Source: Nitrososphaerales archaeon (lineage in GTDB: Archaea; Thermoproteota; Nitrososphaeria; Nitrososphaerales; UBA213). From it: DNA of 54,272 nt. The position numbers and the translations under genes are program-made. The notes beneath the pieces were generated by a model that did no database searches, had not been told where the DNA came from, and saw only the letters and a program-made list of their open reading frames with translations. The DNA is taken from positions 1 to 54,272 of the forward strand of contig JBHICH010000006.1 in assembly GCA_046759465.1 (NCBI GenBank), read 5' to 3'. Shown piece after piece: positions 32,426 through 52,918 of this stretch. The first letter of the stretch is position 1, and each line of letters starts with the position of its first letter.

Positions 32426-32592
32426 AGCCCTTACTTAGAAAATGTACAGTTTGTAATCTGTACACATTGAAGAAGGCGTGCCCAAAGTGTGGTTCGCAAA
32501 CTTACAATCCTCACCCAGCAAAGTTTTCCCCTGATGATAAATATGCCAGATACAGAACAATTGATAGATACAAGGAAATGCCTAGCTCTTAA
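32422..32592 (+). CDS. nop10: H/ACA RNP protein Nop10 (not in ORF track)
   Basis: MKPLLRKCTVCNLYTLKKACPKCGSQTYNPHPAKFSPDDKYARYR; typical position after aIF2alpha. Confidence 0.95.
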   Translation: MKPLLRKCTVCNLYTLKKACPKCGSQTYNPHPAKFSPDDKYARYRTIDRYKEMPSS

Positions 32593-35308
32593 TCATGTAG
32601 GCTTTTTCGATTATCACATCTATTACTGGAATATTTCTTTCATCTCTTGGTAGCATCACTATATCATCCACTAAATCCATACCCTCAACGACCTTTCCAA
32701 AGATTGTATATTTGCCATCCAAATGTGGTGCATCCTTAACAACAATGAAGAACTGTGAACCAGCAAGGTTGGGATCCCCTGGATGGGCCATGGAAACAAT
32801 GCCTCTAGCATGTGTCATACTGCTTATCTCTGCTGGAATTGTGTATCCAGGTCCGCCTGTTCCCCATGTTGATCTAGGTTCTGTCTTTGTGTTTGGGTCT
32901 CCTCCCTGTATGACAAAGTTTGGTTCTATTCTATGGATCTTTATGCCGTTATAGAATCCAGAGTCTATAAGTCTCTTGAAGTTCTCGACTGTCTTTGGAG
33001 CTATATCTGGCAATAGCTCTATTATTATATTATCAGATGGAGATCCTCGAACGCTAATCTGAAGTGTTGCATATTCTTTTAGAGGGTCTAATCGCGTTAC
33101 GATCTCCCTTTCAGCTTTTTCTACTGGCTTGATCTGTTCTTCCAATACTTCATAAACTAGGGCAGCAAACATCAACCGTTCATCATCGTTCACGAAACTT
33201 GGTGACGCATGAAGTAATCTAAGCGGTTCACTGCCATCTGTTGAATATTTTATCTGCTTCACATACACTGGCACATACCCAGATCTATATTCTGGTTGCA
33301 GATCTGTTGGTCTTCCCTGCTCATCCAACTGAACATACGCAGCTGGTTCGAATGGGAACAACTTGCCAAGCAAGGTATCGTTCCAAAATAGTGGTGTTGG
33401 TGTGAATCCGTCATCCTCAAGATACTTATTCTCATCAACTCCTGCAATTCTCATGAACCAATGCTTTTTACTCTCATCACCGCCTCCACCGAGCACATAA
33501 AAAGTGGAACCATCTGGTAGTTGTGCTCTTTGACCAACTACATACACAAGAACGTAATCAGCATCTAGATCCTTGAGTATATTTAGCCCTGTCTGCTCAT
33601 CAGAAACAAGCACTTTAGCTATCTGCTCGATTCTAGTTGAGTTTATTGTGGCATTATCTGCCAAACTTATTCTATCTCCAAGTGTTGTTATCCAGTAACC
33701 GTAGTCCCACCAGGAAGCAATTATGGCGTCTGGCTCTGTGTTATTCTTGATCCAATCCATAGTTTCTGTCCAGTCATCTGTTGATACTCTAAATCCTGTA
33801 GCGCCATTAGCGATACTTGGAGGAATATCAGCACTGGATAACCAGCTTCCATCTGGAGGGTAGAACATTGGCAAGGCTAACATCGTAATCATAATCGCTG
33901 TGTATGCAATTCTAAAGTCCTTACCAAATGTTGGTTTAATCTTGACCTTCTTTTTTGGATGTGTAGGTGGTGCTGTCCTAGCATATATTGATGTTGTAAT
34001 TTCAAATAATGCTATTGCTGCAAGCGTAATTATTGCTATTGAAGAGTAGACCATCAGTCTTGAAACTGATGCGCTGACATAGATTGCTGTTATTCCAAGT
34101 ATAAGGGCAAATATCGTCATATCGTTTCTATTTCTAAAGCAAAGTCTTACACCATAGCCAGCAAGTAAAATGAGTATCGAGTAATTTATGAAATAATCAA
34201 CAATCGTGGGTGTGAAGTGTTCAGCAACAGACTCTATCAGTGGAATCTCACTCTTGCTGAAGGGGCTGATTACTGCTATGTATCTAAAGCTCGGAGGAAC
34301 ATATGATCCTGCTGCAACAAATGACACGCCACCGATAATAAATGCGCCTAACCAAGCAAGAGTATTTCTTAACTGATGCATTGAAGCGCTGTAACGCCGT
34401 ACCAAGTGCGCAACTATAAGGAAGATTGCGGGAGCTATCAATGCTAAGCCTGCCAGTGACACCGCAAATGTCTCTCCAGGCCTTGGAAATGATGATGCTA
34501 CTGCCACTGTTAAAATGGTAAATATTGTTACAGCGTACATTGCTGATTTTGTATCCTTTCTAAAGAATGGCAATGATATGAAGAATAATCCTAACAATAA
34601 AATGAAGTATTGAACTCCTCCCCATGCGGTCATGGCAAAGCCAAGTATCAGTCCTCCTGCCGCGGCTTTAGCTAGCCCAAACTGCACTTCTCTATCGTTT
34701 AATGCAGACAGAGTACCTGTAGTGAGAAATTTTCCATCGCTATGCTTTAGTGCACTCAGTAAAAGATAGATTGCAAGTAAAGCAAGAAAAAGGCCCAATG
34801 GCTCGGACTTGAACCACCCCAAATTACCTCTTTGTATTATTGCAGGAGAAACCGCAAAAAAAAGAGCCGCAAATAAGCCAGCTGTTGTATTTGATATCAC
34901 TCTAACAAAAGCGAACATTACAATTGCTGTAAATGAGCCAAAGACAACTGGGAACCATACTACAAAATCATAGAGTGGTGCTCCTGCACCAAATGCCTTG
35001 TAGAGGTACGCTGCGGAAAGATGCAATCCTGTTTGAGAAGTTTCCGCAACTGGTCTTCCTTCTGGGTACCATGACCTCGTATCATGCCATGCAAAGTATT
35101 CTGATACACCATTTTCAACTAAAAATTGTGTAGCCCTGTAGTCAAAATATGGATCAAATTCATTAAGATATAATCCATATTGCAATGGAAGAGAGCGCAT
35201 CATAAATCCTGTAGCAAATGCTAACGCCAATACTGCAATTACTAGCATATGTTTTCTCGTGAACTTGAAACCTAGAAAGTCTAGTTTTATCGGCTGATCT
35301 GGTTCCAT
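32582..35308 (-). CDS. aglB: Oligosaccharyltransferase AglB (STT3) fused to a C-terminal cyclophilin-type PPIase
   Basis: EFDPYF, SVAEH, WWDYG, DNAT; C-terminal PKTVENF..FY....HRI..NFVIQGGDP..SMA..GSQFFI..HLDGKYTIFGKV. Confidence 0.92.
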   Translation of the reverse strand: MEPDQPIKLDFLGFKFTRKHMLVIAVLALAFATGFMMRSLPLQYGLYLNEFDPYFDYRATQFLVENGVSEYFAWHDTRSWYPEGRPVAETSQTGLHLSAAYLYKAFGAGAPLYDFVVWFPVVFGSFTAIVMFAFVRVISNTTAGLFAALFFAVSPAIIQRGNLGWFKSEPLGLFLALLAIYLLLSALKHSDGKFLTTGTLSALNDREVQFGLAKAAAGGLILGFAMTAWGGVQYFILLLGLFFISLPFFRKDTKSAMYAVTIFTILTVAVASSFPRPGETFAVSLAGLALIAPAIFLIVAHLVRRYSASMHQLRNTLAWLGAFIIGGVSFVAAGSYVPPSFRYIAVISPFSKSEIPLIESVAEHFTPTIVDYFINYSILILLAGYGVRLCFRNRNDMTIFALILGITAIYVSASVSRLMVYSSIAIITLAAIALFEITTSIYARTAPPTHPKKKVKIKPTFGKDFRIAYTAIMITMLALPMFYPPDGSWLSSADIPPSIANGATGFRVSTDDWTETMDWIKNNTEPDAIIASWWDYGYWITTLGDRISLADNATINSTRIEQIAKVLVSDEQTGLNILKDLDADYVLVYVVGQRAQLPDGSTFYVLGGGGDESKKHWFMRIAGVDENKYLEDDGFTPTPLFWNDTLLGKLFPFEPAAYVQLDEQGRPTDLQPEYRSGYVPVYVKQIKYSTDGSEPLRLLHASPSFVNDDERLMFAALVYEVLEEQIKPVEKAEREIVTRLDPLKEYATLQISVRGSPSDNIIIELLPDIAPKTVENFKRLIDSGFYNGIKIHRIEPNFVIQGGDPNTKTEPRSTWGTGGPGYTIPAEISSMTHARGIVSMAHPGDPNLAGSQFFIVVKDAPHLDGKYTIFGKVVEGMDLVDDIVMLPRDERNIPVIDVIIEKAYMIKS

Positions 35309-49095: not shown

Positions 49096-49845
49096 TTAGC
49101 TTGTAACTGTTAGGCTAATAGTTTGTGAAGGAGATAGTGGAGTTGGACTCTCAATATCATCCCACGTGAATGTCTCGATATTGTATCTGCCTTCAAATTC
49201 AGGCATCCAGGTTAAGGAAAATCTGGCAATTTCTTTTGCACTCACGGTTCTGGTTAGCCATTCGAGGGAGACAGTTATGCCAAGATCATCCTTGATCTGA
49301 ACAAGATAGAAGATGCGTTGATCTCTTTCCCCTTTATTCTTTACTTCCGATCTTATCATAACTTCATCGCCAACTTTTATATCTCTACTAGGTGATGGAG
49401 TAACAAGTTCTGGTTTTGAAATAGTTATCGAATATATTGTTGTCTTTTCGCCGGCGAGAACATTGATATCCACTCTGGCAGCCCAGATGGCATAACCTAT
49501 CTTGATACTCCATTTGCCTGTAGGAAATATTTTATCGTAAAGTGGAATCGTAAAAGAAGCTGCAAATTCATTGTCAGTTGTGGGTCTGATCCTTAATTTT
49601 GTAAAAGTCCTTCCGTTAGCATCCTTTACAATTATGTTGACCTCATTACCATTTTCAATTGCAGGAACATGTCCCTTGATCTTGACTACTTCTCCGGTGA
49701 AATAATCGGTTTTATCTGTGGTGACATCTATAGGTGATCTTGGTCTCTCACCTTCCATATCGGCTGTAGAGGCGTAGCTGTATAACCCAAGATTTGAGAA
49801 GAGTAGAATAATACAAATGGTTGGCACAGTAAATTTCATCATCAA
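49096..49845 (-). CDS. Secreted Ig-like surface protein, paralogue of 1..999
   Basis: IDVTTDKTDY..GEVV.I.G and YLVQIKD...W.P..EG.Y.IETFTW....PTPLSP. Confidence 0.8.
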   Translation of the reverse strand: MMMKFTVPTICIILLFSNLGLYSYASTADMEGERPRSPIDVTTDKTDYFTGEVVKIKGHVPAIENGNEVNIIVKDANGRTFTKLRIRPTTDNEFAASFTIPLYDKIFPTGKWSIKIGYAIWAARVDINVLAGEKTTIYSITISKPELVTPSPSRDIKVGDEVMIRSEVKNKGERDQRIFYLVQIKDDLGITVSLEWLTRTVSAKEIARFSLTWMPEFEGRYNIETFTWDDIESPTPLSPSQTISLTVTS

Positions 49846-49940: not shown

Positions 49941-50384
49941 ATGATAATAGTTAATTCTATCATGATGGAAGAATCAACAGATGAGATAAAAAAACATCTG
50001 CAGGAACTTGAAGGCTGGGAGCTGAAGGAAGGGAAGATCGTAAAGAACTATGGTTTCAAATCCTTCATGCACGGAGTGAAGTTTGTTAATGATGTAGCCA
50101 GAATAGCTGTAGAACAAAACCATCAGCCTGTTATCACAATAGTGTGGAAGACAGTAGAGATATCATCGATATCCTTCGATGTTGGAGAGATTACTGATAG
50201 AGATTTTGAACTTGCGAAAGCTGTAGATGAACTTTACAGTAAAAAGTTTGAGGAGAAAATTTCAATTGATGATGATTTTACAGATGATGAGCATCGAATG
50301 ATGATGGAGGAAGAAGAAAAGGACAAGGCGAGGAAGCGCACAAGAGGACCATATAGAAAGTCTTCCAAGGTTCCAGGATCTTAG
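49941..50384 (+). CDS. Pterin-4a-carbinolamine dehydratase-like protein with acidic/basic C-terminal extension
   Basis: L.GW...Y.FKSF..GV.FV...A...NHQP...GEITDRDF.LA..VD; tail KARKRTRGPYRKS; start may be 49962. Confidence 0.75.
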   Translation: MIIVNSIMMEESTDEIKKHLQELEGWELKEGKIVKNYGFKSFMHGVKFVNDVARIAVEQNHQPVITIVWKTVEISSISFDVGEITDRDFELAKAVDELYSKKFEEKISIDDDFTDDEHRMMMEEEEKDKARKRTRGPYRKSSKVPGS

Positions 50385-50566
50385 TTTATTACTTTAGATC
50401 CTTCCAATATTGAAATCTTCATCTAATGCTTAATGTAGGGAGTTTTGGATATTTTATATCCACGTTTTATACCATTGGTTTAATTGCAATTGCTTATCTT
50501 TGGGTTAGAAGGGTTCGTAGAACTAATATCTAGAACCGCTTTTTTCTGCCAACCTGCTAATTTCCT

Positions 50567-50704
50567 TCATTGTCCTCTCACTACATAATCACATTTTGGA
50601 TATCTTTTGCAGTATAGGAAGTATTCGCCAGTCTCCATAATCTTACGTAGTGATACTGTGGGATGGCCACATATCGGACAAATCTTCTTTCTAAGTTCCA
50701 TCAT
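50567..50704 (-). CDS. 45-aa stand-alone topoisomerase-type C4 zinc finger (micro-ORF H)
   Basis: MMELRKKICPICGHPTVSLRKIMETGEYFLYCKRYPKCDYVVRGQ*; TAATG overlap with the upstream ORF. Confidence 0.75.
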   Translation of the reverse strand: MMELRKKICPICGHPTVSLRKIMETGEYFLYCKRYPKCDYVVRGQ

Positions 50705-50937
50705 TACTTTATCCCCTCGCTAAGTTTCTCAAGCTTTAGTATGAGATTGATTCCTTGTAGAAGTTCCTTCCTATCCCTGGTGCTGAAGATGTTAAGGACT
50801 TTTTCGCCTACTATCTTTTCAACCGTTGCGCTTAGATCTCTAACTATACGAGTGGATGGCCAGAAGGATAGTGTGTAGCCATACTTCTCTAGCTGCTTCC
50901 TCAAACTCTTTACGATTTCTGGATATATTGGTTTCAT
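50704..50937 (-). CDS. 77-aa basic helical hypothetical protein (micro-ORF G)
   Basis: MKPIYPEIVKSLRKQLEKYGY...; GGAGTG upstream of ATG 50937 (track start GTG 50949). Confidence 0.65.
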   Translation of the reverse strand: MKPIYPEIVKSLRKQLEKYGYTLSFWPSTRIVRDLSATVEKIVGEKVLNIFSTRDRKELLQGINLILKLEKLSEGIK

Positions 50938-50942
50938 CTTAA

Positions 50943-51044
50943 TTACCACACTCCGTATACTTTTCCTAAGATCAGTATTGTGATTACGAGTGCTGTATAT
51001 GTGCCTGTTATCTTTGTCAGCTCGAGCTTCATTTTAGTTTCCAT
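50943..51044 (-). CDS. 33-aa single-TM microprotein (micro-ORF F)
   Basis: METKMKLELTKITGTYTALVITILILGKVYGVW*; GTGAGG upstream. Confidence 0.6.
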   Translation of the reverse strand: METKMKLELTKITGTYTALVITILILGKVYGVW

Positions 51045-51156
51045 TTTCCTCACACACACATTTGATCCCCATTTTTCGCATTAGCTTTCTCGCACAGCTC
51101 TTGCAGACTTCCAAACCTGCGGGAATTTGTTTTTGACAGTGAATACATTTTAACAT
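51034..51156 (-). CDS. 40-aa zinc-finger microprotein (micro-ORF E)
   Basis: MLKCIHCQKQIPAGLEVCKSCARKLMRKMGIKCVCEENGN*; GGAGGAG upstream. Confidence 0.75.
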   Translation of the reverse strand: MLKCIHCQKQIPAGLEVCKSCARKLMRKMGIKCVCEENGN

Positions 51157-51157
51157 T

Positions 51158-51292
51158 TTATTGACTCCTCCATTTGAGATTCTCTCCCATCTTCTCTAGA
51201 GTTCCACAGCGCATGCAAAGCCTTTCTTTACCTTCCTTAGTATGCCAACTATTCTGACCGCATACCATACAGTTATCTAACTTGTATTTCAT
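51158..51292 (-). CDS. 44-aa zinc-finger microprotein (micro-ORF D)
   Basis: MKYKLDNCMVCGQNSWHTKEGKERLCMRCGTLEKMGENLKWRSQ*; GGAGGAG upstream, TAG-ATG junction. Confidence 0.75.
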   Translation of the reverse strand: MKYKLDNCMVCGQNSWHTKEGKERLCMRCGTLEKMGENLKWRSQ

Positions 51293-51400
51293 CTAGTTCA
51301 CTCCTCCATTTCTAGGACAAAACTTGTTGTTACAATAGACATAGCTACCTTGGTATATGGCTGATTTATGACGGCAGATATCGCATTTCTTCAATTTCAT
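51293..51400 (-). CDS. 35-aa zinc-finger microprotein (micro-ORF C)
   Basis: MKLKKCDICRHKSAIYQGSYVYCNNKFCPRNGGVN*; GGGGGT upstream, TAA-ATG junction. Confidence 0.72.
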   Translation of the reverse strand: MKLKKCDICRHKSAIYQGSYVYCNNKFCPRNGGVN

Positions 51401-51565
51401 TTATACTACCCCCGCTACTTCCATCGGCTTCATCACTTCTCCGTTACCTCCCCTATGGCATTTACACGTACAATTACCGTGACTTCGTCTGTAGTATGTG
51501 CATTGCTGGCAGTATCTATTATGACCGTCGATTTGTCTTGGCGTCATATATGGTTCGCCTCTCAT
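51401..51565 (-). CDS. 54-aa Cys/His-rich microprotein (micro-ORF B)
   Basis: MRGEPYMTPRQIDGHNRYCQQCTYYRRSHGNCTCKCHRGGNGEVMKPMEVAGVV*; TAATG overlap, GGGAG upstream. Confidence 0.72.
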   Translation of the reverse strand: MRGEPYMTPRQIDGHNRYCQQCTYYRRSHGNCTCKCHRGGNGEVMKPMEVAGVV

Positions 51566-51693
51566 TATGCGTCAACTCCCAATACAAAACAGTGCATACA
51601 CTGTTTGTCAATATCTAACATTTCCATATGACATTTAGCGCAGATTCTATCTTTCGATATGCCTAATCTTTTTAATATATTCCACATTGTCAT
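51565..51693 (-). CDS. 42-aa zinc-finger microprotein (micro-ORF A)
   Basis: MTMWNILKRLGISKDRICAKCHMEMLDIDKQCMHCFVLGVDA*; GAGGAGTGA upstream. Confidence 0.75.
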   Translation of the reverse strand: MTMWNILKRLGISKDRICAKCHMEMLDIDKQCMHCFVLGVDA

Positions 51694-51730
51694 TCTTCTA
51701 TCACTCCTCAAGTATACATACGCAAACATG

Positions 51731-51760
51731 CCTTATATAGGTTCATATAGTATCCTATAG
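51731..51760 (-). promoter_or_regulatory. Promoter of the micro-ORF operon: three CTATA boxes at 10-bp period, the last forming a TATA box
   Basis: Minus strand reads CTATAGGATA CTATATGAAC CTATATAAGG. Confidence 0.55.
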
Positions 51761-51823
51761 TAATAATCAATTCCTACTATTATCCAGTTTGGGTTTGGTT
51801 TGATCTTAATCCAGCCAATTAGT

Positions 51824-52918
51824 TTATGATCTAGGTGTTACATCTCCTTTTGCCATCAAATTACCAACACTATCTAGTGCTGTCCATTCATAAGATGAAG
51901 TTCGATTATCAACTATCATTATCATTATCAATGATTTGCCAGGTTTGATTGGTTTATCTTCTGTCTGAACGATTACTGTGCTTTGGTCTATTCTGTCCCT
52001 GTCCCACCCTCTAGCCTTTACAAACCTGATCTTTCCATCATCCATCTTCATCTGGATGCCGAATATCCCTTCATCTCCATTATTCTTGACAGCAACCAAC
52101 GATACTTTCTTCTTATGCTTCATGGCTACCGAAATATCAGCCTCTTTCTGCTCTTCTAATTGAACTTCAGGTTTGGAGAGATCACTTTCCTTATCAAGTT
52201 TCAAATGCACCTTACCCCACTCAATTGGAGATGGCAAGACCTCTTTTACAATTAATTTGAACTGTTTGCCTCCAGCATTTGTGGGCCATTCGATAAATTT
52301 GTTGTTAAAAGCATCATTAACATAAATATAGAATCCCATCATCTCATCAAGGCCATAAGTGGCTATTGGAATTCTAAACTCATAATTCACATGGTTGTTA
52401 GTACTGTCATATGGATCGTTCATATGTGAATATGCGATGGCAGCATCGAACTTGTTGTCATACGGATCCCACGTTTCAGCCTCTTGCAAAACAGTCCATC
52501 CCATGCCATTACCCTGCAGGATACCATCTATGAAGCCACTTCTTGTGACCCTGTAGAAACAGTAATCATCTGCTAGAGGAGCCTTACCTCCATTACTTTT
52601 TGTATCAAAACAAGCTACTGCGAAATCGCCACTTTTTTCAAGACCTTGGTCTGAAATGAAGTCGAACAAGATATATACAAATACTCCATCATGTTTGGTC
52701 CTAAGGTATGCTGTCAATTCTTTGTCCTTAATCTTCGTCTCGCTAGCATCTATCCATTCTGTCTTACTACTCCACCGACCATCGATTTCCAGTAGCTTTT
52801 CACCTTTTGGTATGATGGATTGAGGTTCTTGCTCAAGCTGCATTGATGGTTTTTCAACAGTTAGCATTAAGAACATAACAACAAAAAAGATTGAAGGTAT
52901 GTACCTGTTACGTAGCAT
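51824..52918 (-). CDS. Secreted protein with DOMON/CBM9-like domain
   Basis: N-terminal hydrophobic segment; EIDGRW....EW.DA, ACFDT..NGG, NYEFRIP. Confidence 0.65.
   Translation of the reverse strand: MLRNRYIPSIFFVVMFLMLTVEKPSMQLEQEPQSIIPKGEKLLEIDGRWSSKTEWIDASETKIKDKELTAYLRTKHDGVFVYILFDFISDQGLEKSGDFAVACFDTKSNGGKAPLADDYCFYRVTRSGFIDGILQGNGMGWTVLQEAETWDPYDNKFDAAIAYSHMNDPYDSTNNHVNYEFRIPIATYGLDEMMGFYIYVNDAFNNKFIEWPTNAGGKQFKLIVKEVLPSPIEWGKVHLKLDKESDLSKPEVQLEEQKEADISVAMKHKKKVSLVAVKNNGDEGIFGIQMKMDDGKIRFVKARGWDRDRIDQSTVIVQTEDKPIKPGKSLIMIMIVDNRTSSYEWTALDSVGNLMAKGDVTPRS

Follow-up and report, generated by a model that had tools for sequence, protein, structure and literature searches.

Is a stretch of archaeal DNA that looks nearly empty in an annotation track a mere spacer, or does it hide a set of genes, and if so what kind of genetic unit do these genes form? 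This question is raised by positions 50567 to 51693 of a contig from a Nitrososphaerales archaeon (JBHICH010000006.1), whose entire 54,272 nucleotides (nt) are referred to here as the window. An earlier interpretation made from the letters alone, termed here the sequence-only reading, had proposed that the minus strand of this region is a hidden operon of eight coupled microprotein genes, six of them encoding distinct zinc fingers, and had regarded it either as a proviral early, host-takeover or anti-defence region or as a domesticated array of zinc microproteins. The host genome, in which the window is contig C6, is a binned assembly of 1.58 Mb in 87 contigs that is 95.5% complete with an estimated contamination of 3%. 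It contains amoA, and the host is an ammonia-oxidising archaeon from a hydrothermal-vent metagenome.

We find that the eight open reading frames (ORFs), named o1 to o8 in order, are under protein-level constraint and constitute a tightly coupled multi-gene unit, which appears to be one of two diverged copies of a cassette in this genome. The common core of the cassette would comprise a promoter, a zinc peptide, o2, o4, o5 and a membrane peptide, with o3, o7 and o8 as apparent copy-specific gains in the window and with a basic peptide, a C2H2-like finger and a paralogue of ribosomal protein eS30 as those of the second copy on contig C5. The explanation that we favour, with somewhat better than even confidence, is that the array is a lineage-restricted, twice-inserted and co-regulated chromosomal operon of basic, probably nucleic-acid-binding zinc-ribbon microproteins.

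Results

Eight coupled reading frames on the minus strand

The eight consecutive ORFs encode 42, 54, 35, 44, 40, 33, 77 and 45 amino acids (aa), and the tiling of the minus strand from 51693 down to 50567 reproduces the lengths and coordinates of the sequence-only reading. The tight junctions that it described (TAATG overlaps, abutting stop-start pairs and short gaps or overlaps) measure, from o1 through o8, -1 (TAATG), 0, 0, +1, -11, +5 and -1 (TAATG) nt, with the o5/o6 junction becoming +1 nt if o6 begins at the ATG at 51032 (29 aa). Six of the ORFs (o1 to o5 and o8) carry at least two cysteine pairs each, as had been noticed, and contain 4, 5, 4, 4, 6 and 4 Cys for a total of 27. Since there is no significant similarity among these six, their description as six distinct fingers is a fair label. 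Two of the original claims require revision. A single basic ORF had been recognised (o7, isoelectric point (pI) 9.8), when in fact seven of the eight products have a pI of at least 9.0. A Shine-Dalgarno (SD)-like motif had been assigned to each start; this holds for seven of the eight starts at a match of at least 4 nt (background 44% of sampled ATGs) but only for three of the eight at an exact match of at least 5 nt (background 11%), and o3 has none.

Evidence that the reading frames encode proteins

Coverage of the strand by ATG-initiated ORFs of 30 aa or more amounts to 99.5%, as compared to a mean of 22% and a maximum of 71% among 2000 dinucleotide-preserving shuffles, and the six ORFs with at least two Cys pairs compare to a maximum of one in any shuffle, which upholds the earlier judgement that such an arrangement is unlikely by chance. 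The opposite strand has 43% ORF coverage and no ORF with at least two Cys pairs. In a census of the genome, 82 of 1868 small ORFs lying outside long ORFs have at least two Cys pairs, and these form just three clusters comprised of the window array, a paralogous array on contig C5 and one overlapping pair.

Conservation between the two arrays provides the most direct measure of constraint. Three gene pairs can be aligned (o2 with c5, o4 with c6 and o5 with c7), and these pairs share every one of the 13 core Cys as well as three His. Synonymous differences are saturated (pS 0.69 to 1.1), as compared to nonsynonymous differences (pN) of 0.27 to 0.35, giving an omega of approximately 0.12 to 0.17. 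Natural variants were also recovered from the environment. Three DNA runs from one study, labelled hydrothermal vent metagenome, contain the stretch, and two of these may be its source. No RNA run is listed for it, a blank that says nothing about expression. In run X1, short contigs that are approximately 82 to 83% identical span o8, o7 and o6. Among the 15 variants listed for o7 in these short contigs of a single study, 12 are synonymous when taken singly and 11 affect the third position of a codon. The listed indels preserve the frame: a 3-nt insertion adds a codon just before the o7 stop, and in a contig that is approximately 90% identical a -1/+1 pair lying 3 nt apart restores the frame of o3. 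The sequence-only reading had named frame-disrupting changes together with a lack of Cys conservation as what would speak against genes; the paralogous array and the environmental contigs keep the frames, and the paralogues keep the core Cys.

Because of the tiling, the Cys pairs, the conservation of paralogues in the face of saturated synonymous sites and the synonymous bias of natural variants, we consider the ORFs to be genes, and it is very likely that o1 to o8 are real, expressed genes of one operon.

A collinear sister array and its eS30 paralogue

The paralogous array is located on the minus strand of contig C5 (locus L004, 7696-8918, or to 8975 if the promoter is included). Its gene order matches that of the window, with a CxxC...CxxC peptide (c1) first, the homologues of o2, o4 and o5 (c5, c6 and c7) following in the same succession, and a 29-aa hydrophobic peptide (c8) last. 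Between c1 and c5 there are three additional ORFs that encode a 34-aa basic peptide, a 51-aa peptide with a C-x4-C-x12-H-x4-H pattern that resembles a C2H2 finger, and a 69-aa protein (c4).

The c4 product matches Pfam PF04758 (Ribosomal_S30) at 31.1 bits, which is above the 27-bit gathering cut-off, and at 29.5 bits in a six-frame search of the genome. Its match to the NCBIfam S30e model (E 1.5e-10, 40.7 bits) falls under the 75-bit equivalog cut-off. The canonical eS30 of the host is encoded elsewhere, on contig C51. In c4 the N-terminal 21 residues are conserved, with the HGSLTKAGKV.SQTPK block among them, and the C-terminal half is rewritten, such that c4 is only 36-45% identical to 11 canonical eS30 sequences that are themselves 51-80% identical to the canonical host copy. 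By these comparisons c4 is a very divergent paralogue of ribosomal eS30. Two eS30 hits occur in only three of 400 class genomes, a tally that includes five unpublished genomes on which no positive claim is based (G139, G235, G286, G330 and G368): the host genome, G301 and G369. The second hit in G301 was rejected as a contig-end fragment, and that of G369 is not comparable as this genome has two ordinary copies. A candidate third array locus, on contig C4, was also rejected as it consists of part of a 300-aa protein and an unrelated 66-aa zinc protein.

Several other features were noted on these two contigs. The overlapping pair of the census is located at C5 7061-7374 (minus strand) and is composed of very Cys-rich ORFs of 67 and 50 aa, with a near-repeat of one Cys-rich stretch at approximately C5 8633-8677. 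A 49-aa ORF without a family match (L004 9005-9154, plus strand) is divergent from the promoter of the C5 array. The homologues of o4 and o5 in that array are separated by a relatively GC-rich spacer of 108 nt (L004 7903-8010) with an inverted repeat, GGAACG...CGTTCC, where the window has a 1-nt junction. On contig C4 at approximately 49664-49800 (plus strand), a TATA-like box precedes a short ORF starting with MNCYICG, an apparently stand-alone candidate for a zinc-ribbon microprotein.

A shared promoter and leader

At the nucleotide level the two arrays resemble each other most not within a gene but upstream of o1, where a putative promoter and leader (51692-51761, minus strand) exhibits 83% identity over 72 nt (window 51761-51692 versus L004 8975-8904). 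This region contains three (A/C)CTATA boxes at an exact 10-nt spacing, the third of which constitutes the candidate TATA box ACCTATATAAG (51732-51742). Downstream of it is a conserved block, ATGTTTGYGTATGTA, that may serve as an operator and is followed by an SD-bearing leader, CTTGAGGAGTGAT (51700-51712), that extends up to the start codon. A 43-nt core of this promoter occurs at only two loci in the 1.58-Mb genome even when 10 mismatches are allowed. No structure is predicted for the leader RNA (-1.85 kcal/mol), and no covariation was found. As the promoter is 83% identical even though the synonymous sites of the adjacent genes are saturated, selection appears to act on it as a regulatory DNA element. 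It is the sole promoter element common to both arrays, with the qualification that no scan for internal archaeal promoters was made. Given a near-identical promoter with operator-like repeats, one regulator probably switches both copies on together, and we infer that the window array yields one transcript and that a dedicated DNA-binding factor regulates the two cassettes jointly.

Products of the window array

All eight genes are on the minus strand. The first, o1 (51565-51693), encodes a 42-aa zinc-ribbon-like peptide with a CxxC...CxxC pattern and starts at the first ATG after the SD motif; this start is plausible because the in-frame ATG at 51729 is only 4 nt past the TATA box and is thus too close for use. 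The match of o1 to Pfam Zn_Ribbon_1 is under the cut-off (E 0.004), and its similarity to c1 is not significant. Gene o2 (51401-51565) encodes 54 aa and is 60% identical to c5 (pN 0.27, pS 0.69, omega approximately 0.17). Its invariant residues H15, C19, C22, H29, C32, C34, C36 and H37 would be enough for two metal sites, and it has no family match and no match in the PDB. The 35-aa o3 product (51293-51400) has a CxxC...Cx4C pattern and is without a counterpart in the C5 array. The o4 product (51158-51292, 44 aa) resembles a CxxCG...CxxCG zinc ribbon with a conserved W-H, and is 43% identical to c6 with four of four Cys invariant (pN 0.35, synonymous sites saturated). Gene o5 (51034-51156) encodes 40 aa in which a CxxC...CxxC pattern is followed by a basic, helix-like MRxMGI tail; identity to c7 is 49% with four Cys invariant (omega approximately 0.12), and two additional Cys are not conserved.

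The sequence-only reading had also predicted a transmembrane peptide, and o6 (50943-51044, 33 aa or 29 aa from ATG 51032) is indeed hydrophobic with a grand average of hydropathy (GRAVY) of 0.72, which suggests a peptide that crosses the membrane once. Its place in the C5 array is taken by c8 (29 aa, GRAVY 1.68), and similarity between the two is not significant. The 77-aa o7 product (50704-50937) is Cys-free with a pI of 9.8 and is predicted to be helical. Its ESM Atlas model has a predicted template modelling (TM) score of 0.64, and an AF2 model made without an alignment has three helices at a mean predicted local distance difference test (pLDDT) value of 57.8, too low to support a search by fold. 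The last gene, o8 (50567-50704), encodes 45 aa with a CPxCG...Cx5C pattern resembling the topoisomerase-type C4 zinc ribbon. It matches positions 2-34 of the 39-position profile of Pfam PF01396 (Zn_ribbon_Top1) with an E of 2.7e-5 and 24.3 bits, which is under the 32-bit gathering cut-off, and NCBIfam topoisomerase I models with an E of 0.003 to 0.005. This is a resemblance to PF01396 and not a curated membership. Apart from these matches, searches of the array products against NCBIfam and PDB sequences gave nothing significant, and no Rfam family is present in either array.

Distribution of homologues

The o2 family was not found in seven other genomes of the family, each representing a different genus, or in 399 other genomes of the class. 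Three weak class-level hits to o2 were discarded, two of them as spurious upon inspection and the third (E 0.005) for an internal stop. Alignment patterns for o2 also gave no match in contigs from IMG/VR, from GTDB at one genome per species, or from JGI metagenomes. Likewise, o7 was not found in the seven family genomes, in approximately 399 class genomes or in the viral, genome and metagenome contigs, and the same holds for the o4 and o5 families in the seven family genomes and in IMG/VR contigs. A hit for o7 in G241 and one for o4 in G004 were both rejected because of internal stops. A degenerate pattern for the TRDRKELL block had no match in viral contigs, and tblastn with o7, o2 and c4 detected no relatives in 50,697 phage records.

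Protein collections were similarly sparse. A HMMER search of 1.84 billion representatives revealed a sole relative of o7, a 69-aa singleton from a 974-nt contig (P0002, 51% identity, E 3e-9); two other hits to long proteins were rejected as spurious, with P0003 being repetitive. A word-based search of 5.8 billion proteins returned nothing for o2 and only o7 itself for o7. In a collection of 15 billion proteins, o7 is the only one of the eight present with the starts used here, an exact look-up that would miss an ORF called from a different start, and the operon can fairly be called hidden.

Single, unannotated zinc microproteins seem to be common in this family. A conserved, Cys-rich ORF of 57-59 aa (MRCGCRCMYCK...) is present in G004 and G002 (L022 1924-2097 and L023 1294-1473) directly downstream of the orthologue of the pterin dehydratase gene, and another zinc-ribbon ORF of 48-54 aa is common to G004 and G003.

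Chromosomal setting

Genes neighbouring the window array code for a pterin-4a-carbinolamine dehydratase, CARDB-like surface proteins, a MacB-type ATP-binding cassette (ABC) transporter, an AsnC-type regulator, S6e, the alpha and gamma subunits of eIF2 and an STT3 fusion protein. The C5 array is directly upstream of the gene for isoleucyl-tRNA synthetase (IleRS), and its other neighbours are a TrmB-family regulator, two weak Snf7-like ORFs (below the cut-off), an AAA ATPase, succinyl-CoA-ligase-like genes and a carbamoyl-phosphate synthase subunit. Pfam scans of ORFs of at least 90-100 aa detected no integrase, transposase, capsid, terminase, portal, replication, conjugation or defence gene from 29 to 54 kb of the window, which agrees with the earlier remark that no capsid or integrase gene is adjacent, and none of these gene classes within approximately 8 kb on either side of the C5 array (18 kb scanned). 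The G+C content is 39.5% for the window array and 40.4% for the C5 array, as compared to 41.0% for the genome.

Two observations hint at an insertion. In G006 the IleRS gene adjoins the TrmB gene with a gap of approximately 900 nt and no array, where the gap in the host genome is 2.5 kb; synteny of the window flanks is too little conserved in the family for a true empty-site comparison. In addition, an imperfect 18-nt direct repeat (14 of 18 positions identical) brackets the window array on the plus strand, with its left copy (50372-50389) overlapping the stop codon of the pterin-4a-carbinolamine dehydratase gene and its right copy (51810-51827) overlapping the stop codon of an upstream gene for a 364-aa protein. 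The exact 9-mer in this repeat, TTAGTTTAT, occurs nowhere else in the 54-kb window.

Three further ORFs of the window deserve mention. A 35-aa hydrophobic ORF (50426-50533, plus strand) separates the 3' end of the array from the pterin dehydratase gene and falls within the bracket formed by the 18-nt repeat. The 364-aa protein (51824-52918, minus strand) is without a Pfam family; its C-terminal domain of approximately 110 aa occurs at 14 places in the host genome and at 3-10 in each of the seven family genomes, and looks like a lineage-specific, multi-copy and probably surface domain. Finally, a 908-aa ORF (32582-35308, minus strand) is an unusual fusion of an STT3 oligosaccharyltransferase N-terminal region to a cyclophilin-type peptidyl-prolyl isomerase domain at the C-terminus.

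Discussion

The favoured explanation and what weighs against it

In the explanation that we favour, the window operon would supply five different Cys4 or His-Cys zinc-ribbon peptides, one topoisomerase-type zinc ribbon, a membrane peptide and a 77-aa helical basic protein. Both copies are flanked by housekeeping genes, and both are subject to purifying selection. The Cys peptides probably have zinc-stabilised folds, and the products may act as basic adaptors that, in a single kind of condition, tune the information processing of the host by binding to DNA, to RNA or to the ribosome. Binding to nucleic acids or nucleoproteins is suggested by the basic charge, by the sub-threshold topoisomerase-type ribbon of o8 and by the eS30 paralogue in the sister cassette; a role of the products as modulators that bind DNA, RNA or ribosomes is nonetheless a tentative proposal to which we give less than even weight. 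The cassette, which we do not take to be a provirus, would have been inserted twice from a lineage-restricted and possibly mobile gene pool, and we see about an even chance that this pool is mobile or at least transposing.

A number of points weigh against this explanation. Seven of the eight products are without function-bearing homology, and the step to a modulator rests on charge, on zinc-ribbon precedent and on one sub-threshold domain match. The status of o1 to o8 as genes is based on comparative sequence evidence, and SD support for their starts is modest. With regard to distribution, the seven family genomes are of other genera, which makes absence from them a coarse argument, the contig scans relied on just two short peptide patterns each, and microproteins are so seldom annotated that a lack of hits in protein databases carries little weight. 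With regard to insertion, the putative empty site in G006 belongs to a different genus and is thus a coarse comparison, with the other family genomes not having kept these flanks. The bracketing repeat is suggestive only and may be due to chance (a rough estimate of approximately 0.02 for 12 repeat families), and the C5 array is flanked by just a 12-nt repeat of a different sequence.

Alternative explanations

The alternative that survives best, though we judge it unlikely, is that an integrated virus or plasmid left the array behind as a remnant or brought it as cargo, in which case it would be an early, host-takeover or anti-defence block with a function in conflict and with small zinc-finger proteins that target the machinery of the host or of rival elements. 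Two diverged copies at unrelated loci, each insertion-like, would suit such an element, yet no integrase, capsid, terminase, replication or transposase gene is present within 20 kb of the window array or 8 kb of the C5 copy, and it is this lack of any mobile-element gene nearby that leaves a provirus unsupported. The genes are ORFans with a very narrow distribution. On the opposite side, no relatives were found in IMG/VR or in the phage records, PHROGs has 0 matches to 17 peptides, and PADLOC (19 proteins) detects only two weak matches to a Cas10 zinc ribbon, both with o4 (E 0.003 to 0.005). Precedents for viral carriage do exist. Archaeal viruses commonly carry small zinc-finger genes (PMC3541406), and ribosomal-protein genes can be virus-borne, which is of relevance to the eS30 paralogue of the C5 copy; the virus-borne eS30 case that is reported is a retroviral capture of fau (PMC6375957). 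The structural clusters nearest to the Atlas model of o7 are also mostly viral hypothetical proteins, at weak TM scores of 0.57 to 0.63. Against this, the G+C composition is host-like, and a decaying remnant would hardly show the long-lasting purifying selection that acts on the two copies and their promoter. The described integrated elements of Thaumarchaeota are furthermore defined by an integrase, with the smallest being 2.6 kb (PMC6563490). The proviral half of the sequence-only reading therefore finds no backing in these data, and its other half, a domesticated array of zinc microproteins, fits them. The second copy, the promoter common to both and the eS30 paralogue were beyond the reach of a reading of this stretch alone.

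A second, improbable alternative is that this is a metal-buffering or detoxification operon, in which Cys-rich peptides act mainly as metallothionein-like sinks for zinc, copper or cadmium and are induced, through a metal-sensing repressor at the shared operator, in a vent habitat rich in metals. The density of Cys is high, o2 has eight conserved His and Cys and o5 has extra Cys in a CxC, but residues that are not ligands are also conserved between the paralogues (YYRRSH and GNG..PME.AG in o2, W-H and RLCM in o4 and MRxMGI in o5), which argues for specific partners rather than bulk metal binding. Two of the products are Cys-free, and the C5 copy adds an eS30 paralogue. The hydrothermal-vent label of the source runs and the resemblance of the conserved block between TATA box and start codon to a repressor site are consistent with metal control, as against the lack of any adjacent metal transporter or ArsR/SmtB-type regulator.

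An equally improbable alternative is a translation-remodelling module in which the zinc ribbons are ribosome-binding factors or alternative subunits that are co-expressed with the eS30 paralogue to yield condition-specific ribosomes. Small basic zinc ribbons are frequent among archaeal ribosomal proteins, and the sister cassette does encode a second eS30, a rarity in the class as described above. The link nevertheless hangs on this one gene of the other copy, since the window array itself has no ribosomal-protein homologue, and the best ribosomal matches of its products are not significant (L37e at E 0.1-0.14 for o4 and Thermus uL24 at E 0.022 for o8). Last, that the ORFs arose by chance in a spacer that is non-coding or encodes an RNA, a view for which the absence of seven of the eight from public protein sets could be cited, is extremely improbable, as the shuffle test rejects chance tiling, natural variants are biased to third positions, no Rfam family is matched, and the retention of protein sequence by paralogues at saturated synonymous sites effectively refutes it already.

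Relationship to known systems

The co-regulated chromosomal operon of zinc-ribbon microproteins that we favour has its nearest described class in the one-domain zinc-finger micro-proteins of Haloferax volcanii, where 43-49 proteins of under 70 aa are reported to have two C(P)XCG motifs (PMC10716476, PMC11241148, PMC6562870). Most of these zinc-finger micro-proteins are described as binding one zinc, and their deletions alter stress adaptation, biofilm formation and swarming (PMC6562870, PMC10716476, PMC11241148), though several predicted zinc fingers of this organism bind no zinc (PMC11241148). The Cys ORFs of the window are similar in being archaeal, in being no longer than 70 aa (all six are 35-54 aa) and in having two Cys pairs. 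They differ in that six different zinc peptides are coupled in one duplicated operon and in that no sequence relation was found. The host is also an ammonia oxidiser and not a haloarchaeon, and most motifs lack the P or the G: o4 has CMVCG and CMRCG, o8 has CPICG and Cx5C, and o1, o2, o3 and o5 have CxxC pairs without G, such that the strict Haloferax motif is present in only one of six. The words "operon", "adjacent" and "cluster" are absent from the main text of PMC11241148, and among the titles and abstracts in a search of limited coverage of the literature on small archaeal zinc proteins, none was found that describes an operon of multiple zinc-ribbon microproteins.

Other comparisons are partial. 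AFV1p06 of an archaeal virus is a very small zinc- and DNA-binding protein of the C2H2 type (PMC3541406), and the sister cassette has a peptide with a C-x4-C-x12-H-x4-H pattern; unlike the viral fingers, both cassettes are chromosomal and under long-term selection, and no viral-family homology was found. The CPxCG...YPxC pattern of o8 is like that of the PF01396 ribbon, but o8 is a stand-alone protein of 45 aa without an enzyme domain. The cryptic integrated elements of Thaumarchaeota, which are described as ranging from 2.6 to 98 kb and as sometimes having very short flanking repeats (PMC6563490), likewise are lineage-specific blocks of unknown genes inserted into the chromosome, but the unit described here is 1.2-1.4 kb, and no integrase was found.

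A further comparison involves the ribosome. In the Zur-regulated alternative ribosomal-protein operons of bacteria, the paralogues are Cys-free replacements of known ribosomal proteins. The resemblance is that a ribosomal-protein paralogue and small Cys-motif proteins occur under a dedicated operator, and the difference is that the partners here are Cys-rich ORFans, with only eS30 being recognisably ribosomal.

What is new here is the zinc-ribbon microprotein families themselves, their unusual organisation as a coupled operon in duplicate, and the distinctive promoter that the two copies share. A more far-reaching and quite doubtful proposal is that the two cassettes form a one-operator regulon whose products, the zinc-ribbon peptides plus a rewritten eS30, are delivered to either the ribosome or RNA polymerase. 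We know of no multi-microprotein, specialised-ribosome module described in archaea. If the proposal is true, this regulon would be a case of condition-specific, microprotein-based remodelling of translation or transcription in an ammonia oxidiser.

Small archaeal zinc-finger proteins are known mainly as scattered single genes with pleiotropic phenotypes, and most of them are missed by gene callers. In the present case the reality of eight coupled microprotein genes rests on comparative evidence and not on the counting of motifs, and the locus offers a handle on regulation in a 70-nt promoter/operator common to just two loci, together with a possible link to the ribosome in a divergent eS30. 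Should the array be merely lineage-specific accessory dark matter, it would be a well-documented but ordinary example of its class. In either event it provides a test case for the role of multi-gene sets of zinc microproteins in ammonia-oxidising archaea, and for the coding capacity of their genomes that is hidden from annotation, as are seven of the eight genes here.

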